Shown in pieces: positions 2,463 through 30,954 of a stretch of 64,000 nucleotides of DNA. The stretch lies in assembly GCF_057098645.1 (NCBI RefSeq), contig NZ_CM169472.1; one strand, written 5' to 3'. The notes under the pieces are model-generated. The model searched no databases and was not told the origin of the DNA. It saw only the letters and a program-made list of their open reading frames with translations. The position numbers were made by a program, and so were the translations under genes. Within the stretch, counting starts at the first letter, position 1. Each line of letters starts with the position of its first letter.

Positions 2463-4334
2463 TTACAGCGTAAATTCGTTTCCGGGTCCAGTGCCCAGGT
2501 TATTTACTATATAAGCATCTATTCTCTGATCATTAAATCGCCAGCAGTCAATGGCAAGATCCATCAGCAGGCGTTGCCTTGATGTGATGCTTTCCGCAGA
2601 CCAGTCTTGATATTCATATCCATATTTCAGCTTAAAGCGATTTAATGCAGTGTTATCACCAATTGAGTACTGGGAGTGGAGTAATCGAGTCATGATGATT
2701 TCAGAGTTTAAATATTCTGTTTGTTTTTTCAAAAACCAGTCTTCACTCAAATCATTGCAGTTATTGACAGACTGGTTAATTGTACCCTCTAATAATGTTA
2801 CATTACCAAGTTTGTAGAGATAACTTGTTCGATTTACATCAGAGAACTCCCCGTTTTCAGGGGCGTTTCGTACCGTCTGAGGAAGAATATGCTCAATTTG
2901 CATCTGCTGAATAGCCTGCTGGCTCTTTTCCGGAAAACCGCAAAGATGGCGGATATGATTCTCTAATCTACCCAATACATAACGTTGGCGATACTGAGGC
3001 GTAAAATTATAGTCATTAATAATTGAGAATCGTTCTTTAAATTCATCTAAACGCTCCACAACAAAAGGTATAAGTGTTGCTGAAACAACATTTGCAACCT
3101 CTGCTTTCGTTTTCACATCCCGAAGCTTTACAGCCCATTGAGTAAAGCGTTGCTCATATGTCTTCGATTGAATAGCCATTGTATTTGTAAAGAATAAAAA
3201 GCTCTCAAGTTGAGCACCTAAGAAATCCATTACATCATCTGAACAACTAATATCCAATGCCATTAGTAAAACCAAATGCTGACGTGAGCGATATTTATTA
3301 ATATATCCAATGTTACTTACGTTTGGAAAACGGATATTTTCACGCCAGTAGGCTGCTTCATTTGTTGCATTGACCAGGTTAGCGTATCGTTCTGATAATT
3401 TTTCCAATTCTTTGACGAGGACCATAGGGCGTGTCTTATACTGCAACGACAGTTCCCCCTCAGCTGAAATGATCCATTTATATATATCATCTTCACGCAA
3501 AATCCCGTGATGATATCGTGCCATCAGAAAGTAACGTAAAAAACGAAGCGGGTTATCACTTTCGCCGCAAGACTCAAGGTTATTAGTGATGGATTTCCAT
3601 GTTGTCTTTATTGCCGAAAACTGTTCTTCTTTTATCTGACTGAAAATCAAATTTTTAACAAGATCCATAGCATTAAGGCTGGCACCACGCTGATTGATCG
3701 TTTCGAAGATCTTTAATGCGCTACTTAAGTTCTCTGATTCAATGACAACCAGCTCAACTTTTGTTAAAAAAAAGCGAGCGAAGGAGATTAATCCATTCAA
3801 GCTATCTTGCAATTGGTATTTAAGATAATCACGAATGTGATCATACGCGTCAGCCATTTTTTTTACTGAAGCTGTTTCCGCAAAGGTATTGGTTTGCCCT
3901 TCAATTAACCGCGAAATAAATCCTCGACTTTCTTCATATTGAAGATCTAGTCTAATTAGATTTTCCTCACTATTAATATCATAACTAGAGAGCCATTCCT
4001 CAATAGTTTTCAGATATTCCAGCCCTTTTTTGTCAAGTGTATCCAATCTATCTTTTAATAGATCCCGTAAGGCACACATAGTGATGACAATAGTGGTCAA
4101 CCGCTGCTGTCCGTCAATAACATCATGCTTTTCCCCATTCTTTACGATAATAACAGAACCGAGAAAATAACCATTTTGATCTTTCTGCTCTGGTTGGTAT
4201 TCATTGTCTAAATCCATGAGAAACTGTTCAACCTGATCATCAACCTTCCATACATACTCACGTTGATAATCGGGAACTAAAAAATAATAATCGCTTAATT
4301 TTGATATATTTTTTACATCGGCTTCTATTTTCAT
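2463..4334 (-). CDS. DUF262 (ParB-like NTPase) / DUF1524 (HNH-like) fusion protein, GmrSD-like type IV restriction-type nuclease
   Basis: 623-aa ORF; N-terminal DGQQR motif typical of DUF262, C-terminal ...QIEHILPQ... His-Me finger-like motif typical of DUF1524; AT-rich. Confidence 0.65.
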   Translation of the reverse strand: MKIEADVKNISKLSDYYFLVPDYQREYVWKVDDQVEQFLMDLDNEYQPEQKDQNGYFLGSVIIVKNGEKHDVIDGQQRLTTIVITMCALRDLLKDRLDTLDKKGLEYLKTIEEWLSSYDINSEENLIRLDLQYEESRGFISRLIEGQTNTFAETASVKKMADAYDHIRDYLKYQLQDSLNGLISFARFFLTKVELVVIESENLSSALKIFETINQRGASLNAMDLVKNLIFSQIKEEQFSAIKTTWKSITNNLESCGESDNPLRFLRYFLMARYHHGILREDDIYKWIISAEGELSLQYKTRPMVLVKELEKLSERYANLVNATNEAAYWRENIRFPNVSNIGYINKYRSRQHLVLLMALDISCSDDVMDFLGAQLESFLFFTNTMAIQSKTYEQRFTQWAVKLRDVKTKAEVANVVSATLIPFVVERLDEFKERFSIINDYNFTPQYRQRYVLGRLENHIRHLCGFPEKSQQAIQQMQIEHILPQTVRNAPENGEFSDVNRTSYLYKLGNVTLLEGTINQSVNNCNDLSEDWFLKKQTEYLNSEIIMTRLLHSQYSIGDNTALNRFKLKYGYEYQDWSAESITSRQRLLMDLAIDCWRFNDQRIDAYIVNNLGTGPGNEFTL

Positions 4335-4391: not shown

Positions 4392-4901
4392 TCACAAACG
4401 AACAGGAGAGTAGACCCCTTCTACATTACAGCTATCTCCGTCATCAAAAATCAACTCTCCTGCACTATAACCATCCATGGATAAAATAGCCTTTTCATTG
4501 AGAGCCAGACTAAGGCACATTGATGTTTTTATCATATTATCTGTACCATAAATCTCATACCAGTTATCTTCTTTTTTAGAAACCTCTACCTCATACTTTC
4601 CTGAGTCAATATTAACCATGCTAAATACATTATCTACATCACATGAATCCTTGCTATCTGTAAAAATTATTTTTTTATCATAGCCATCAACCCTGAGATA
4701 TGCGTCTTCAGAATAAGCATAAACATAACAATATTTAGTATTAACAAAAGAATCCTTCCCAGTAATTTGATATAAATTACTATCTTTTCTTGTGACATTT
4801 ATTTCCCACGTATTGGCATGAACATAACCTGGAGCCAAAAACAGGGTTAATAAGAACGGTCCAATCTTGGCTTTAAAGTTTCTAACAATTTTGAAAAACA
4901 T
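4392..4901 (-). CDS. Secreted hypothetical protein with internal tandem duplication
   Basis: 169-aa ORF; N-terminal signal peptide (...LLTLFLAPGYVHA); two ~50-aa repeats each ending in a DSCDV/DSCNV motif; no recognisable family. Confidence 0.55.
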   Translation of the reverse strand: MFFKIVRNFKAKIGPFLLTLFLAPGYVHANTWEINVTRKDSNLYQITGKDSFVNTKYCYVYAYSEDAYLRVDGYDKKIIFTDSKDSCDVDNVFSMVNIDSGKYEVEVSKKEDNWYEIYGTDNMIKTSMCLSLALNEKAILSMDGYSAGELIFDDGDSCNVEGVYSPVRL

Positions 4902-4952
4902 AAAACCCCTTCTTATATAGTTCTGTAATATGTTAATTTAGCTGGGCTCTTA

Positions 4953-5708
4953 CTACATATCAGCCAACAACATCCCAGCCATGCCATCCAGCCGTTTCTT
5001 GACCTTTTCCCACCCAGGCATAACCTGCCCCATCAGGCGGTAAAACTCTTCACTGTGGTTGTGCTCAGCAACATGGCATAACTCATGTAGCAAAACATAA
5101 TCGATACATTCTGAGGATGCCTTAACCAGCCATGGATTCAGGGTCAGACAGCCTTTTGCTGAACAGTTGCCCCATTGCGTTTGCATCGCCCGCAGACGTA
5201 TCGGAGGACGCTCACTGACCCAAAGGGTCTGCGGAATCAGTAAATCAAGCCTGCGCTGAAAAACATCTCTGGCACGTTCCCGATACCATTCAGCCAGCAA
5301 GGCTTTAATCTTTTCTGCCGATTTGTGTCTGACAGTCACTTCCAGACGCCCACGCAACATTTTCACTCGTTGCGGCACAGTAGCGTCTTCTGTCACTTTC
5401 AACTGATATTGCTTACCGAGATAATAATGGCTTTCTCCGCTGACATACTGACGCGGAACAATGTGTGTCTGTTGCTCCCTGAAATCACGCAGTTGCTGGT
5501 ATATCCAGCGCCCACGTTTTTTCAGCGCAGACAATACCTCGTGCTCCGGTGTTTCAGGCGGTACAGAGGCCACAACCCGGCAGTCCGGATAAACCTTGAT
5601 GAGCACCCTGCCCTTTACGACCTGACGCGGAACACACTGTACGACGATGACCTCATCACCATAGACAATGCGTAACGCTTTCATTGATGGCGATTCTTTT
5701 TCACTCAT
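4953..5708 (-). CDS. DUF45 / M48-like zinc metallopeptidase (YgjP-like)
   Basis: 251-aa ORF with HELCHVAEHNH (HExxH) motif; start overlaps hsdR stop by 4 bp, implying co-transcription; this family commonly follows hsdR. Confidence 0.7.
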   Translation of the reverse strand: MSEKESPSMKALRIVYGDEVIVVQCVPRQVVKGRVLIKVYPDCRVVASVPPETPEHEVLSALKKRGRWIYQQLRDFREQQTHIVPRQYVSGESHYYLGKQYQLKVTEDATVPQRVKMLRGRLEVTVRHKSAEKIKALLAEWYRERARDVFQRRLDLLIPQTLWVSERPPIRLRAMQTQWGNCSAKGCLTLNPWLVKASSECIDYVLLHELCHVAEHNHSEEFYRLMGQVMPGWEKVKKRLDGMAGMLLADM

Positions 5709-8700
5709 GATTTCATCAAACCAACGCGCAGTATCTGGATGATGGTTTCCACAATACGGTTAACCTGATTCATTCCGGCACCAATTTCCCGGCAGGCCGT
5801 AAACAGCAGTGGTAGCAGACTTGTCTTAACGACTTTCTCAATGTCCTGGGGGTTCAGGGAGTTTTCTGCCACCGCTTTGACGATAATGTTGTCCACGTCA
5901 AAAGCCAGCTTCGTCCACTTATCCTGCACTTGAACGTCTTTTACCACAAAAACCTCAGGTAGCTCTTTTTTAAATACACCGTAATATGCCTGAGCATGCT
6001 TGTTTACCGCCAAAGCATCCGGGATATCACTGAGCTTACGGGCTTTAACCTGTTCTTCAAACTCACGGAATAAGAGGTACTGCTTAAGTGGATGGTCGAA
6101 CAGTTTTTCAGCCTCTTCGATTGCCATACGCAGGAGTCTGGAAAAGGCCTCCTGAGCATACGGATCATCACGCAGCTCCTGCTCAATCATCTTCGTCACA
6201 CGGGTTTTAATGATGTCGGTTTCATTGCGGGTTTTATTGTTATCCCACTCTTCGGGTTTTTCGCTCTTGCCCATTTTACCGACTTCATACACGCCATCCG
6301 GTTCACGAACCTCAACGCCGGTAACATGCTTATCCAGCAATTTTTTCACCTGCTCAGCGTAGTCGTCATAATTGACCTGCTCTCCACTTACCTGCATCGC
6401 CCACTGGCGAAGGCTGGACATCTGTTTTACGGTTTCTTTATAGAGATTTCGGTCTTGTTCCGTAAAGCTCTTGTCGGTGAAGAAGGTAGCGGACTGCAGT
6501 GCCACTTTCAGGCATCCGGCAAAGGCCGTTAACGCCTCGAAGAAATCATCACGGGTTTTCTGATGGATATCGACCATCTCTCCGTCACGTTCTTCCATTT
6601 TAGGCACCAGTACTGCACGTAACTGCTCAGTATCATTTTTGTTTTTAACACCGGCAAATATGGCCCACAACTGGTTATACAGATGCGGCAGACGTTTATA
6701 TTCAGAGCTCATGGCGCTGTACAGCCCGTCAATATCCTTGATGTCGTATCCTCCCTGGGTTCGGGAGGCGAGATCCTGATATTTGCCGATAGTCGTGTCC
6801 AGTTCAGCCAGAATGCCGCGATAATCAATCAGCAGGCCAAACTTTTTCAGTGGATGCAGACGGTTTACCCTTGCAATCGCCTGGATAAGGTTGTGGGACT
6901 TAAGCGGCTTGTCGATATACAGCACGGTATTCTTCGGTTCATCAAATCCGGTGAGCAGTTTATCAACGACGATCAGTAATTTGAGCTTATCATCAGTATC
7001 GAAACGACTGATGATATTGCGGGTATACACAGACTCATCCTGCATGCCGACGTTATCTTTCCACCATTTCGTCACTTCCGGCAGTTTGCTTTCATCCACC
7101 TCAGTATTCCCTTCCCGGGTATCCGGCGGGCTGATAACTACAGCTGACTCAAACAACCCGGCTTCATCAAGATACTTTTTATATTTGATGGCGGAAATCT
7201 TGCTGTCGCAGGCAAGTTGGCCTTTCAGCCCCTCATCAATATTCTTCGAGAAGTGTGTGGCGATATCGAGTGCGATCAGCCGGATGCGGTCATCTGCACT
7301 GTAGACCTCACCTTTACGGGCATATTTACGTTTAAGGTCGGCTTTTTGCGCTTCGCTTAACCCATCGGTAATACGGTCAAACCAGGCATCTATTGCCCGA
7401 TCGTTAACCTCAAGGTCGGGAATACGTTCTTCATACAGCAAAGGTGTAACGGCTTTATCTTCTACCGCTCGCTGCATGGTATAAGCGTGGACAATCGGCC
7501 CGAATTTATTGGTGGTCTTATCTTCTTTTAGCAATGGCGTACCGGTGAATGCCACAAAGGCGGCGTTCGGCAGTGCCAGTTTCATTCGCACATGGTTCTC
7601 ACCCCCCTGGCTGCGGTGTCCTTCATCAATCAGAACGATGATGTCGGGGCTGGTATTGACGCATTCAGGCAATTTTGTCGCTGAGTTAAATTTCTGGATA
7701 AGGGTAAAGATTATACGTTCTTTACCAGAGCCAATCTGCTGTGCCAGCTTCTGACCTGAGGTCGCCATCGCTTTGGCCTTATCATCCTTCCCTGCCAGTT
7801 CGCCACCAGAGACAAAAGTGCCGCTGAGCTGCCCTTCAAGGTCCACGCGGTCCGTCACCACCACAATACGACACTGCTTCAGGCTGTCATGAAGGATCAG
7901 CGCCTTGCTGAGGAATACCATGGTGTAAGATTTACCTGACCTCGTGGTATGCCAGATCACCCCACCTTCCCTGCCCCCGTCTGGTCTGCGGGTACTGATG
8001 CGTTCCAGCAGTCTTTTTATCCCGAACACCTGCTGATAGCGGGCAACAATTTTTCCGGTTTTTTTATCAAACAGGGTGAAGAAGCGGGTCATCTCCAGCA
8101 GACGTTCCGGTGAAAGCAGACTGATGAGCAGCTTATCCTGCCCGCTGACTGCCAGTTCCCCCCCATCGATTAACTGTTGATACCATTTGAGATCGACTGA
8201 AGGACGATGATCAAACAACGCATGAATTTGTTCAGTCGATAACTGATGGTTGCGCAGCGCATACATCTGCGGATCGGTAATATCTTCTTCGCGCCATGCC
8301 GCCCAGAATTTCATTGGCGTATGGCATGTACCGTAGCGCCCGTCATGACCGTTAATCGAAAGTAATAACTGGCTGTAGACAAACAGCTGCGGGATTTCAT
8401 CGTTGAACTGGTTGCGGATACTCTGGGATATCCCCTCGTCAATGGTTGGCCCTTTCTTGCCATGACCAGCCGGGCTTTTCGCTTCAATAACAGCCAGCGG
8501 GATACCATTAACAAAGCAGACAATATCCGGTCTGCGGGTTTCAACACCGCCTGACCGCAATACCGTAAATTCTTCAGTAAAATGGAACTGGTTATTTTCC
8601 GGATGTTCCCAGTCGATCAGCGCAATGGTGGGGTTGACCTTCTTGCCATCGACAAATTCGGTGACGGCGATACCGTAGAGCAGATGGTTATACATCCGTT

Positions 8701-8989
8701 CATTGGCTTTGAGCAGCCCTTCATTCAGCGCCGGAGAACAGACCTGTGATATCAGGTTATCCAGTGCTTTTTCCGATAACTGGCAGTTTTTGCCACCCGC
8801 CATAAAGGAACGCTTCGACAGCTCTTCACGCAGAACCGGACGCAGCACCACCTCATCCTGTTTATAGCCCCGGTAATCCATAATCTGTTTCGGAGATAAA
8901 AACGTCCAGCCGAGGCTGGTCAGTAACGTCAGTGCCGGGATTTTGGCGCTGTATTCTTCCTGGAATTTAGGTTGGTAGTGCTTATCCAC
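5705..8989 (-). CDS. hsdR: Type I restriction enzyme R (restriction/translocase) subunit
   Basis: 1094-aa ORF with helicase-type motifs (e.g. VLIDEGHRSQ DEAH-like box); operon context with hsdM/hsdS. Confidence 0.88.
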   Translation of the reverse strand: MDKHYQPKFQEEYSAKIPALTLLTSLGWTFLSPKQIMDYRGYKQDEVVLRPVLREELSKRSFMAGGKNCQLSEKALDNLISQVCSPALNEGLLKANERMYNHLLYGIAVTEFVDGKKVNPTIALIDWEHPENNQFHFTEEFTVLRSGGVETRRPDIVCFVNGIPLAVIEAKSPAGHGKKGPTIDEGISQSIRNQFNDEIPQLFVYSQLLLSINGHDGRYGTCHTPMKFWAAWREEDITDPQMYALRNHQLSTEQIHALFDHRPSVDLKWYQQLIDGGELAVSGQDKLLISLLSPERLLEMTRFFTLFDKKTGKIVARYQQVFGIKRLLERISTRRPDGGREGGVIWHTTRSGKSYTMVFLSKALILHDSLKQCRIVVVTDRVDLEGQLSGTFVSGGELAGKDDKAKAMATSGQKLAQQIGSGKERIIFTLIQKFNSATKLPECVNTSPDIIVLIDEGHRSQGGENHVRMKLALPNAAFVAFTGTPLLKEDKTTNKFGPIVHAYTMQRAVEDKAVTPLLYEERIPDLEVNDRAIDAWFDRITDGLSEAQKADLKRKYARKGEVYSADDRIRLIALDIATHFSKNIDEGLKGQLACDSKISAIKYKKYLDEAGLFESAVVISPPDTREGNTEVDESKLPEVTKWWKDNVGMQDESVYTRNIISRFDTDDKLKLLIVVDKLLTGFDEPKNTVLYIDKPLKSHNLIQAIARVNRLHPLKKFGLLIDYRGILAELDTTIGKYQDLASRTQGGYDIKDIDGLYSAMSSEYKRLPHLYNQLWAIFAGVKNKNDTEQLRAVLVPKMEERDGEMVDIHQKTRDDFFEALTAFAGCLKVALQSATFFTDKSFTEQDRNLYKETVKQMSSLRQWAMQVSGEQVNYDDYAEQVKKLLDKHVTGVEVREPDGVYEVGKMGKSEKPEEWDNNKTRNETDIIKTRVTKMIEQELRDDPYAQEAFSRLLRMAIEEAEKLFDHPLKQYLLFREFEEQVKARKLSDIPDALAVNKHAQAYYGVFKKELPEVFVVKDVQVQDKWTKLAFDVDNIIVKAVAENSLNPQDIEKVVKTSLLPLLFTACREIGAGMNQVNRIVETIIQILRVGLMKS

Positions 8990-9058: not shown

Positions 9059-10843
9059 TTATGATGAAAAGAACGGCGAGTCCCGATAAAGGCGATTGTA
9101 CTTGACCTGTTCTGTTTCGCCCTTGTTTACATTACCAAATTTCTCCTGATGCGTCGTACAGCAGGAACCACAGGATGCACAAATAAATCGTCCTTCTGAA
9201 CATTTTTCATGCAAATCCCTGGCGTCAATTATTTCGCTGCATTTGTAACCAATACAGTGATTAATGTAATGCCCGATACCAAACTGTTCGCACGAATGAC
9301 TGGCACATTTAAAGACGGTCAGGCGATACGCGGCCTGGAAAGGTTTTTTCACAAATCCTTTCGACTTTGTATCCCAGACGCTGACTTCCACACGAGCATA
9401 TTTCATATCTGGAACCATCAGCACCCCACAACTTCGGCAATGCAAGCGGGAATGTAATTCTCTGATACGATTGAAATACCCAGCCAGTTTAATTGGGAAA
9501 TCCCGCTTAGAAGGTTCGCCTGCAATCAGATAGGTCATGCCATAGTGGGCAAGCCAGTCATAAATAGTGAAGTCGATGTAATCCCGACTGAGGTCGGGTA
9601 GTACCTGCGGATCATGGCAGATTTTCGAACGACAAAGGAATTTTTTCTCTATCGTTCCGTCAGGTTGTTTTGCATTCCAGTGAAATGCCTCACAGGATAA
9701 TTTTAAATTCCGGGAACGAATTTTCAATGAGCTACACTGTGGGAACAATTTGAAAACAGAAGGATGGCTTACCGGGATTTTACCCGACAACACTCCCTGC
9801 CATATCTCATGCAGAATAATACTCAGAACGGACTGTTCATCGTTACGCCCAATCAGCGGTAACAATTTACTCAGAATAAAGTATTCAGGGTCAGAAGAAA
9901 TTTCAGTATTCGACTCAATATCATTAACAAAACTGAAATCTTTCCTGAACATCTTCTGTTTAATCAAATACTTATTGACAAAAGGACTAATCACGGAATG
10001 TTTATAAAATTGCTCTCTCGATGAGAATTTCTGCTGATAGGCATCACGGACAAATGGTTGTATATCCATTTTATTTTTCGTGAAACTACGTCGAACAAAA
10101 TTCTCTATATCATCATGCCGATGTTCAAGAATCCGCTCGCTGCTTATACAATCGTAAAATGCCAGGTAGAGAATAGCACTTATAGATATATGGCTGAGTA
10201 ATTCATTGATGATGTCCGATGTTGAAGCCCCCTGGCAATCCGTAGCCGCAGAACACCTTTTCACCCAAACAGCGAACTGATCAATGTTATTATCGATAAA
10301 TGACGAAGGCATGACTGCAGGAGATATTTGTTGTGCGGTCAAATCATCAAAATTCTTATCAGAGGCGAAAAGTGCAAACTGGTTATCGTAGTTACGTGAT
10401 TTTAAAAATAGCGGCAAGACTTTTGTAGCAGCTATATCACTGGTAACTAACCGAATTATAGCCCTTTCGCCAAAGGACTGAGTGAGAAAATTAATAACGC
10501 AGTCACGATAACGCCAACGAGCGAAATCAACGCCCTCCTCAATAATAGCCCGGAGATATTCAATAAGGAGCTCAGCCGTCTCCTCATCTGTTTTATCAAG
10601 AATGTGAACATTAAAAGCCGTAGGCTTACCATTTTTACCTGTACCTTCCCTGAACAGCACCGGTGCATTGTCTGCGGGTGTATAGTTCCGGCTTATCTCA
10701 TTCTTATGAAAAAACAGCTCATTACCATTCTCTGATAAGAGAAAGCCAAAGTTATTCTCCCGATCCGTTTTGCTGTTGTAGCCTCCGAACCAGAGAACAT
10801 TTCCCATGTACCACCGGGAACGATCCAGATTGTTCACTGCCAT
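9059..10843 (-). CDS. Hypothetical protein: N-terminal cold-shock-like (OB-fold) domain, large unknown middle region, C-terminal Cys-rich zinc-ribbon-like region
   Basis: ORF 9059..10921; start chosen at internal Met (MAVNNL...) to avoid a 56-bp overlap with the upstream gene; N-terminal NNFGFLLSENGNELFFHKNEI resembles the CspA-type GFGFI...VFVH motif; C-terminus has clustered CxxC / CxH / CxxC motifs. Confidence 0.55.
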   Translation of the reverse strand: MAVNNLDRSRWYMGNVLWFGGYNSKTDRENNFGFLLSENGNELFFHKNEISRNYTPADNAPVLFREGTGKNGKPTAFNVHILDKTDEETAELLIEYLRAIIEEGVDFARWRYRDCVINFLTQSFGERAIIRLVTSDIAATKVLPLFLKSRNYDNQFALFASDKNFDDLTAQQISPAVMPSSFIDNNIDQFAVWVKRCSAATDCQGASTSDIINELLSHISISAILYLAFYDCISSERILEHRHDDIENFVRRSFTKNKMDIQPFVRDAYQQKFSSREQFYKHSVISPFVNKYLIKQKMFRKDFSFVNDIESNTEISSDPEYFILSKLLPLIGRNDEQSVLSIILHEIWQGVLSGKIPVSHPSVFKLFPQCSSLKIRSRNLKLSCEAFHWNAKQPDGTIEKKFLCRSKICHDPQVLPDLSRDYIDFTIYDWLAHYGMTYLIAGEPSKRDFPIKLAGYFNRIRELHSRLHCRSCGVLMVPDMKYARVEVSVWDTKSKGFVKKPFQAAYRLTVFKCASHSCEQFGIGHYINHCIGYKCSEIIDARDLHEKCSEGRFICASCGSCCTTHQEKFGNVNKGETEQVKYNRLYRDSPFFSS

Positions 10844-10865
10844 GAGCAAGCCCCCTTCCGCTTTG

Positions 10866-11549
10866 TCAGTGCAGGCAGCACTTTTTAAATTTTTTACCAC
10901 TGCCACACTGACACGGGTCATTACGACCGGGCAGTTTTTCTGCCCCCTTCACGGGAACAGGCCGGGATGATGCCTCTGACATTCTCACCGACAACCAGTG
11001 CTGGTAAAGCGCCAGTGCCGCAGGCTGAATGAGAGTAATACTCTGTTCAAATTGAACAGGTGACATTTTCTCAACCACTGGGAAGTTCTTTTCAATACCA
11101 TGAAGGGCTATCGCCTCCAGCGAGGGACGTAAGGCCTCTGGCAAGGCTGACCAGTCATCCAGAGACCGGCCTTTCATATACCCGAAACACCACTCTTCGA
11201 CGATGGTATATGTCTTCCCCTTCACCTCACGTCCATTGAAAATCGGTTCAAACTGTTCAGGGGCCTCATACAGGCAGCCAGCGATATCGTTCATATGCTG
11301 AAAACACAGCCCCACAAAACGCGTCATCTCTTTTTCAGTGGTCCAGCGAGGGTGGTAATCACCTCGCCCCCAGATAGCACTGAGCCAGGTATTAGGGGAA
11401 ATCGTATTCGGGCCAGAGACAATCGCCGTCAGAAAGCCATCCAGCTCAGAGAAACAGAGCACAGAGTCATCATTGCCGTATTTCATCAACACCTCTTCCA
11501 GCCAGTCGATTTCCCGGTCAATCAGCGGCCCGCTTTTCGTCAGTTTCAT
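10866..11549 (-). CDS. YecA-like UPF0149 / SEC-C motif protein (island-borne paralog of core yecA)
   Basis: 227-aa ORF alignable over its whole length with YecA (1199..1864), roughly half identical by eye; same C-terminal [20 protein letters not shown] motif; start abuts the hsdS stop. Confidence 0.8.
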   Translation of the reverse strand: MKLTKSGPLIDREIDWLEEVLMKYGNDDSVLCFSELDGFLTAIVSGPNTISPNTWLSAIWGRGDYHPRWTTEKEMTRFVGLCFQHMNDIAGCLYEAPEQFEPIFNGREVKGKTYTIVEEWCFGYMKGRSLDDWSALPEALRPSLEAIALHGIEKNFPVVEKMSPVQFEQSITLIQPAALALYQHWLSVRMSEASSRPVPVKGAEKLPGRNDPCQCGSGKKFKKCCLH

Positions 11550-30578: not shown

Positions 30579-30708
30579 CAGGCACAAAAAAACCACCCGG
30601 AGGTGGTTTCACGACACTGCTTATTGCTTTGATTTTATTCTTATCTTTCCCATGGTACCCGGAGCGGGACTTGAACCCGCACAGCGCGAACGCCGAGGGA
30701 TTTTAAAT
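30579..30708. repeat. Right direct repeat (attR): leuZ 3' end plus downstream terminator region
   Basis: 130 bp matching 1986..2115 with one mismatch; overlaps the intact tRNA-Leu 3' 56 nt. Confidence 0.85.
30586..30612 (-). terminator. Rho-independent terminator of the glyW-cysT-leuZ tRNA operon
   Basis: Minus-strand hairpin aaccacc-tccg-ggtggtt followed by a T7 run immediately 3' of leuZ. Confidence 0.7.
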
Positions 30709-30739
30709 CCCTTGTGTCTACCGATTCCACCATCCGGGC
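30653..30739 (-). tRNA. leuZ: tRNA-Leu (anticodon UAA)
   Basis: 87-nt sequence GCCCGGATGGTGGAATCGGTAG...CTCCGGGTACCA on the minus strand; anticodon loop TTTAAAA; long variable arm; encoded CCA. Confidence 0.9.
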
Positions 30740-30751
30740 TCGGGAAGAAAG

Positions 30752-30825
30752 TGGAGGCGCGTTCCGGAGTCGAACCGGACTAGACGGATTTGCAATCCGC
30801 TACATAACCGCTTTGTTAACGCGCC
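30752..30825 (-). tRNA. cysT: tRNA-Cys (anticodon GCA)
   Basis: 74-nt GGCGCGTTAACAAAGCGGTTATGTAGCGGATTGCAAATCCGTCTAGTCCGGTTCGACTCCGGAACGCGCCTCCA on the minus strand. Confidence 0.9.
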
Positions 30826-30878
30826 AAATTCTTCAGGCCTTTCAGCCAGACATCCGCTGACGCCGATGTCTTTTAAAC

Positions 30879-30954
<76 letters not shown>

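Follow-up and report, generated by a model that had tools for sequence, protein, structure and literature searches.

Several small exclusion proteins encoded by phages act outside the cytoplasm, among them Sp and Imm of T4, Llp of T5, and Cor of phi80 and N15. Their modes of action at the envelope are diverse: the entry of DNA can be blocked, Sp inhibits the peptidoglycan-degrading activity of the incoming phage, and Llp and Cor mask the receptor. SieA of phage P22 is an inner-membrane protein. Surveys of bacterial defence islands focus on cytoplasmic systems that target nucleic acids, and the exported proteins of such islands are usually left as "hypothetical". One protein with this label, here called X (RefSeq WP_000465340.1/WP_024552305.1, product "hypothetical protein"), is encoded in a 64,000-nucleotide stretch of an Escherichia coli chromosome (assembly GCF_057098645.1, contig NZ_CM169472.1; hereafter the window) at the tyrP-yecA/tRNA-Leu hotspot. 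Its coding sequence of 169 amino acids (aa) lies on the minus strand at 4392..4901, exactly where an earlier reading of the DNA made from the letters alone (the sequence-only reading) had placed it. We tentatively regard X as an autonomous exported binding protein of the cell envelope, possibly one that mediates superinfection exclusion.

Export signal, domain duplication and family of X

X is a genuine gene held by purifying selection. The ratio of non-synonymous to synonymous substitution rates (Nei-Gojobori) was 0.21 between X and its Leclercia ortholog, 0.06-0.15 among the orthologs of Pectobacterium, Dickeya, and Brenneria, and 0.08 between two orthologs of the operon-borne type described below. 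X is annotated as a coding sequence in 143 of 5426 complete E. coli genomes, always in a single chromosomal copy and with at least 99% identity. A Shine-Dalgarno-like element, AAGAAGGGG (4906..4914, minus strand), can be read in the sequence 4 nucleotides (nt) upstream of the ATG, and the Leclercia ortholog has GAAGGGG at the matching position.

The first 29 residues (4815..4901, minus strand) constitute a predicted Sec signal peptide, in agreement with the sequence-only reading. The n-region is basic (K4, R7, K10, K12), the hydrophobic core extends over approximately residues 13-25, and the predicted cleavage site, VHA|NT after residue 29, is conserved across the family. This three-region pattern, typical of Sec and signal peptidase I (SPase I), was assigned by a rule-based check of the n-, h-, and c-regions over an 86-member family alignment, and it is family-wide: a hydrophobic N-terminal core was present in all 86 members and small residues at positions -3 and -1 of the aligned site in 77, with a lipobox-like motif in only four. 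By the same rules, X itself has the features of a soluble protein exported through Sec and SPase I (basic n-region, h-region, small residues at -3/-1, no lipobox), and it is most likely exported to the periplasm of E. coli.

Downstream of the signal peptide, X contains an internal duplication that is far beyond chance. The local self-alignment score was 136, versus 25.3 +/- 5.0 (maximum 45) in 1000 shuffles, and the family profiles of the two halves matched each other in hhalign with a probability of 99.8% and an E-value of 4.4e-28 over 66 columns. The sequence-only reading had described two repeats of ~50 aa, each ending in a D-S-C-D/N-V motif; the duplication was thus confirmed, but the unit is longer, at ~67 aa. 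Self-alignment, hhalign, the predicted strands, and the conserved cysteines together delimit a first unit at residues 30-96 (4614..4814, minus strand), with Cys58 and Cys87, and a second unit at residues 101-167 (4401..4601, minus strand), with Cys129 and Cys158; each is predicted to form a six-stranded beta-barrel. The motifs do exist (DSCDV at 85-89 and DSCNV at 156-160), but they are sited ~8-10 residues before the ends of the units, and the only part of them that is conserved across the family is the Cys and, to some extent, the V that follows it. C58 and C129 are invariant in the family, and C87 and C158 are conserved in at least 90% of its members.

The AlphaFold2 model of X, which was obtained from a 19-sequence alignment (mean predicted local distance difference test score 86.8, predicted template modelling score 0.71), shows two all-beta domains of six strands each behind a helical signal peptide; the query was submitted without Met1, and numbering in the model is that of the protein minus 1. 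Relatives with a single domain have a signal peptide and exactly two cysteines each, which argues for one disulfide per domain.

The family is sizeable. When 1.84 billion cluster representatives were searched with a profile, 798 relatives were identified at E <= 1e-3, of which 69 reached E <= 1e-30; each represents a cluster at 50% identity. Most of these are stand-alone proteins of ~160 aa. In longer lipoprotein or secreted chains, the double module is C-terminal and accompanies PKD, Big_9, CARDB, MopE, TSP3, MORN, or DUF4124 domains; this position, as a head on stalk proteins, indicates that the module is extracytoplasmic and probably functions in binding. Single-domain relatives were also found in prophages of Helicobacter pullorum (tblastn, 50,697 phage records). 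Another, of 90 aa and with a signal peptide, is encoded by the 4323-bp plasmid pTR11_6 of Acinetobacter sp. TR11, in which it is the sole non-backbone gene, the rest being rep, mobC, and a relaxase gene. A second, word-indexed protein search with a broad family profile returned no further relatives, and a literature search by accession found no report on X.

Several named families were considered for X. In Pfam, no family reached its threshold with X or with any of 86 relatives. The Y_Y_Y domain (PF07495) was rejected with 17.7 bits versus a gathering threshold of 26.6 (E 0.0033, residues 70-112 only), and it was matched by only one of the 86 members. DUF2846, under which the Dickeya homolog is named in UniRef, was rejected as well, as none of the 86 members scanned matched it in Pfam at E <= 0.01. 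Membership in the Leptospira families LIC_11826 and LBBP_01157 of NCBIfam was rejected on scores of 23.6 and 22.3 bits (E 3e-5 and 7e-5) versus cut-offs of 240 and 270; the match takes in the signal-peptide region, and it is possible that a domain is shared between X and these families. The sequence-only reading had allowed for a known periplasmic housekeeping family, and none was matched in Pfam, NCBIfam, PHROGs, Foldseek, or a search of PDB sequences with the family profile, which gave nothing below E 0.3. X is best filed as a new, unnamed family among the exported cargo or moron proteins of prophages and genomic islands, and this family, despite its size, has no entry in Pfam or in the defence database.

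Prophages, islands, and an operon with homologs of X

A first group of homologs belongs to a prophage lineage of Yersinia, Pectobacterium, Dickeya, and Brenneria, together with four IMG/VR prophages. A late protein of 463 aa in these X-bearing prophages is 33-34% identical to vb_24B_47 of the Shiga toxin phage phi24B. In phi24B, vb_24B_47 is directly followed by vb_24B_48, which encodes a 2807-aa LPD5/LPD1/LPD38/MuF_C protein; this LPD/MuF_C protein has been reported as an abundant virion component and proposed to be ejected in order to bridge the periplasm (preprint 10.64898/2026.04.10.717836). In the X-bearing prophages, the homologs of these two genes are separated by an AT-rich, oppositely oriented cassette containing X, whose GC content is 31-39%, versus 45-53% in the flanks. 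The prophage homologs therefore display the characteristics of morons, namely insertion between adjacent phage genes, opposite transcription, and deviant composition.

The content of the insert depends on the host. In the Yersinia prophage, X is accompanied by a membrane/coiled-coil protein of 276 aa, and a promoter-like site (10/12) lies upstream. In Pectobacterium, Dickeya, and Brenneria, a homolog of Mnt (49% identical to P22 Mnt, E 3e-14) is followed 2 nt later by X and then by an RcsF-like lipoprotein, and these genes are divergent from arc-ant. In a P22-type genome, the superinfection exclusion gene is located on the mnt side of the mnt/arc-ant pair, where it is transcribed in the direction of mnt and against that of the DNA-transfer genes. 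The homologs of Pectobacterium, Dickeya, and Brenneria have the same Mnt-side location and the same orientation relative to mnt, a comparison that is not applicable to the E. coli copy. The lipoprotein directly after X in these phi24B-like prophages (L006:10498-10875, L008:10498-10878, and L015:10477-10857) has an LSSC or LSAC lipobox and is predicted to be located in the outer membrane; its gene appears to be co-transcribed with that of the Mnt homolog. It matches RcsF of NCBIfam with an E-value of 2e-5, below the cut-off, and may serve the phage to manipulate the Rcs envelope-stress pathway. In a different phylum, a prophage of Chrysiogenes arsenatis encodes a protein that is 38% identical to X. 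An LPD5/LPD1/LPD3 giant protein and a P22-type antirepressor are encoded nearby, and a diversity-generating retroelement is present in the same vicinity.

Other homologs are found in islands. Solitary copies are present in a DISARM-like island and in a Hypoth_Ymh/HEPN_AbiU2 island, and another lies beside TIR and caspase-helicase genes. Homologs also occur beside toxin-antitoxin genes of the BrnT/BrnA and nucleotidyltransferase/Xre types, and some adjoin genes for tyrosine recombinases or integrases. In a gammaproteobacterial metagenome-assembled genome (L025:6315-10444), X is the last of five small open reading frames with low GC at third codon positions, each followed by imperfect inverted repeats, and the array is divergent from a gene for an IntI-type tyrosine recombinase; in this array, X is probably an integron gene cassette.

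A further setting, on broad-host-range plasmids, is an operon of ten genes, which encode, in order, an Hsp70-like protein, an AAA+ ATPase, a peptidoglycan (PG)-binding protein, p672, p214, X, p349, p217, an RDD protein, and p92. The operon-borne X is 50-54% identical to that of E. coli and was found on Aeromonas and Shewanella plasmids, in all in ~15 proteobacterial genomes or plasmids and four IMG/VR contigs (loci L012:1-11121, from Shewanella plasmid NZ_CP091834.1, L011, from an Aeromonas IncP plasmid, L016-L030, and L042-L045). The operon genes are 75-100% identical across Aeromonas, Shewanella, Acidovorax, Comamonas, Pseudomonas, and Lysobacter, which indicates that this is essentially one promiscuous module; two diverged versions (L028, L048) also keep X nearby. 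Of the products encoded before X, the Hsp70-like protein has ~830 aa, the AAA+ ATPase is of the classical type (IetA/FtsH-like), the PG-binding (PG_binding_1) protein is bitopic, p672 is a zinc-ribbon protein of 672 aa, and p214 has 214 aa. Of those encoded after X, p349 (349 aa) is bitopic, p217 (217 aa) is secreted, and both the RDD protein and p92 (92 aa) are membrane proteins. The two bitopic proteins have a common cytoplasmic N-terminal motif, GF(A/S)GLS(S/A)LVSDVD, and MAYEDPNAPS is common to the RDD protein and p92. No system name in PADLOC or NCBIfam fits the operon, and the literature on defence systems with Hsp70 and AAA+ proteins yielded only the CoCoNuT papers, which describe different systems. 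None of the operon genes was found in the window or in any enterobacterial X locus.

The E. coli island and its restriction genes

The sequence-only reading had placed X within a defence island, which holds true. On its downstream side, 57 nt away, is a GmrSD-type DUF262/DUF1524 type IV restriction gene (2463..4334, minus strand; Pfam GmrSD_N 2e-36, GmrSD_C 4e-20). Upstream, 51 nt before X, a YgjP-like metallopeptidase gene (4953-5708, minus strand) overlaps hsdR (5705-8989, minus strand), both identified from Pfam and annotation, and these are preceded by genes for a cold-shock-domain protein, a YecA-like protein, and HsdS. The GC content of X (33.1%) and GmrSD (37.6%) differs from that of YgjP (50.3%) and hsdR (49.1%). 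No convincing promoter or terminator was found in the gaps between YgjP, X, and GmrSD.

The island as a whole spans ~28 kb (window 1864-30739), with yecA at one end and the tRNA-Leu(taa)-tRNA-Cys-tRNA-Gly cluster (30653-30954) at the other. Its type I restriction-modification (R-M) operon has two extra genes between hsdS and hsdR (9059-11549, minus strand). One encodes a 227-aa YecA-like UPF0149/SEC-C protein, a paralog of the adjacent core yecA (58% identical), and the other a 620-aa protein with an N-terminal cold-shock domain. A SEC-C protein is also present in the unrelated DISARM-like island that holds an X homolog. Beyond hsdS (~12-30 kb), the island contains insertion sequence (IS) elements and integrase genes, and in this part colinearity with any complete E. 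coli genome never exceeded 72%.

Comparison of island variants shows which parts of this arrangement are exchangeable. The same X block, with 99-100% identity, was found on Klebsiella IncF plasmids and in Citrobacter and Franconibacter, which points to recent horizontal spread. In strain OW1E2, the hsdR-YgjP-X-GmrSD end is kept, and the genes for the YecA-like and cold-shock-domain proteins are missing from the R-M operon. In another ~94 E. coli genomes, the match is confined to the last ~47 nt of YgjP. Two of these genomes were examined, and neither of their sister islands has X: in one, YgjP is directly followed by a different DUF262 gene, and in the other by an IS fragment, two DUF262 genes, and hhe. 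In alignments, homology between the variants stops exactly at the YgjP stop codon (window 4953), and the part downstream of YgjP is therefore a swappable cassette. The cassettes seen after this codon are X-GmrSD; DUF262 with a PD-(D/E)XK nuclease and a restriction endonuclease; and the IS fragment with two DUF262 genes and Hhe. In Leclercia, the R-M genes and YgjP are 96-98% identical to those of the window, and X (76% identical) lies between two PDDEXK_4 genes, without GmrSD. On plasmid pKpVSI78_2, X is truncated by IS3 and GmrSD is intact; a 66% match on this plasmid is the same allele cut by IS3, and the notion of X and GmrSD as a co-diverging pair was rejected.

These observations bear on the explanation that X is a functional component of the type I R-M/YgjP system or of GmrSD. 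The genes share one strand, the gaps of 51 and 57 nt contain no predicted terminator, and the block travels whole among E. coli, Klebsiella plasmids, Citrobacter, and Franconibacter. However, the sister islands without X, Leclercia, OW1E2, and pKpVSI78_2 show that X is not a required part of either restriction system, and the end of homology at the YgjP stop codon also speaks against a common function. In addition, the nucleases are cytoplasmic, and an exported X could not come into contact with them. The more distant homologs of X never accompany hsdR or DUF262, and the homologs as a whole show no obligatory co-occurrence with hsdR or DUF262/DUF1524. The association that the sequence-only reading had proposed to survey is thus real in part: many homologs do lie in defence loci or mobile elements, but there is no specific link to DUF262/DUF1524 or hsdR, and the linkage to these genes is limited to one recently spread enterobacterial island lineage. 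We conclude that X is an autonomous cargo gene and not a subunit of the adjacent restriction systems; a role as a component of either is largely refuted and retains hardly any probability.

Candidate functions and comparison with described proteins

In the mechanism that we favour, X would be translated with its Sec signal peptide, exported, and cut after Ala29. In the oxidising periplasm, intradomain disulfides (C58-C87 and C129-C158) would staple each of the ~67-residue beta-barrels, and the mature protein of ~140 residues would be a soluble extracytoplasmic binding module. Its target could be a periplasm-exposed component of the host or the trans-periplasmic ejection machinery of an incoming phage, and binding would block the entry of DNA. 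Exclusion of this kind would act upstream of the cytoplasmic R-M and GmrSD nucleases. The periplasmic location of X, its disulfides, its binding activity, and any anti-phage effect are what we infer from the sequence and its contexts. In favour of exclusion, X recurs in the moron slots of prophages, in defence and toxin-antitoxin islands, on plasmids, and beside integrases. The superinfection exclusion suggested by the sequence-only reading finds an analogy in the sieA-like slot beside Mnt in phi24B-like prophages, but no homology to a known exclusion protein was found. As this support is positional and by association only, we place the exclusion reading well short of an even chance.

A number of results weigh against exclusion. 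BLASTP between P22 SieA and X gave an E-value of 4.4, and hence no homology. The tblastn search of 50,697 phage records returned no close homolog in cultured phages, and the prophage-type query had no match. No PHROG family was identified for X, with one weak match only, to a group whose function is unknown (E 0.004), and no defence hidden Markov model of PADLOC-DB v2 matched the E. coli or operon versions at E <= 0.01. Foldseek searches with the model against PDB and BFVD (viral structures) gave no match at E <= 0.001. In E. coli, the minus strand immediately before X showed no promoter-like site; an own promoter was accordingly rejected, and expression would depend on read-through from hsdR-YgjP. 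The contexts, once near-identical loci are collapsed, amount to ~14 independent settings, a small sample shaped by retrieval. Finally, one homolog lies beside PD40-like and PEP-CTERM genes in what looks like an ordinary part of a chromosome, and relatives in such settings and in the ten-gene operon indicate that the domain is not intrinsically anti-phage.

This chromosomal setting, and likewise the fusion of the module to the C-terminus of PKD, Big_9, CARDB, TSP3, and MORN surface or secreted proteins, agrees better with unrelated cargo, an option that the sequence-only reading had also raised. X would then be a non-defence factor for lysogenic conversion or fitness, an adhesin- or lectin-like extracytoplasmic ligand-binding module that alters the envelope or the cell surface, and would be in the island only because such hotspots gather mobile cargo, with Lom and Bor of lambdoid phages as a parallel. 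The corresponding late region of phi24B has lom as a moron, and the apparent co-transcription of X with the RcsF-like lipoprotein in three prophage genera suggests envelope-signalling conversion. Against cargo stand the repeated occurrence of X beside nucleic-acid defence genes, in islands unrelated to one another, and its sieA-like position downstream of Mnt, although both are compatible with this explanation. Given the relatives with chromosomal locations and those fused to the stalks of surface proteins, we consider the cargo explanation nearly as likely as exclusion, although doubtful when taken by itself.

Two further explanations are less probable than either exclusion or cargo. X could be an orphan periplasmic immunity protein or inhibitor that, like other small periplasmic inhibitors with disulfide bonds, counters a periplasm-acting toxin or a peptidoglycan hydrolase, such as an effector of a type VI secretion system, of contact-dependent inhibition, or of a bacteriocin, or else the peptidase of a MuF_C/LPD phage ejection protein; an effector gene is never adjacent to X, however, and we give this explanation a slim chance. 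Slimmer still is the chance that X of E. coli is a detached periplasmic subunit of the Hsp70-like/AAA+/PG-binding/RDD system, a hitch-hiking remnant with little or no function alone. Its position as the sixth operon gene in ~15 genomes or plasmids and four IMG/VR contigs, and the two diverged operon versions with X nearby, are consistent with such an origin, but the solitary copies are under purifying selection and keep the signal peptide and all four cysteines, and in many settings X occurs without any operon gene. Exclusion and the operon can also be combined in a broader proposal, which we consider unlikely as a whole: the family would comprise Sec-exported, disulfide-stapled tandem barrels that serve as stand-alone entry-exclusion factors, passed among phi24B-like prophages, the cargo of integrons and plasmids, and defence islands of chromosomes, and, in addition, as the periplasmic subunit of a ten-gene, envelope-spanning Hsp70-like/AAA+ system of broad-host-range plasmids. 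If this were true, the operon would be a candidate conflict system. Found here via X, this envelope operon is uncharacterised and may deserve a study of its own.

The distinction between exclusion and cargo has consequences for how such islands are read. Should X block the entry of phages, a hotspot in which type I and type IV restriction are otherwise stacked would gain a layer at the envelope, and this one gene could serve as a simple marker for envelope-level exclusion. Otherwise, X would be a clean case of unrelated cargo on a swappable cassette 3' of YgjP, and a caution for predictions that rely on guilt by association.

Among described proteins, the small beta-barrels of the PmrD-like type (PDB 2rqx, 4hn7) are nearest to X in fold, although X is not a member of that family. 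The lambdoid morons lom and bor resemble prophage X in their insertion, opposite strand, AT-rich composition, and predicted envelope product. X is, however, neither an outer-membrane beta-barrel like Lom nor a lipoprotein like Bor, and nothing points to a role for it in serum resistance or adhesion. P22 SieA is similar to X in size (164 versus 160-169 aa), and X is on the Mnt side of mnt/arc-ant in Pectobacterium, Dickeya, and Brenneria; like prophage X, sieA is also opposite to the flanking virion and ejection genes, a likeness that is positional only. The two proteins differ in that the SieA sequence has long hydrophobic stretches, whereas X is predicted to be soluble and all-beta, with the signal peptide as its sole hydrophobic segment. 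X is likewise a member of none of the families represented by Sp and Imm of T4, Llp of T5, and Cor of phi80 and N15, and it is with these small proteins that it would share its proposed type of mechanism.

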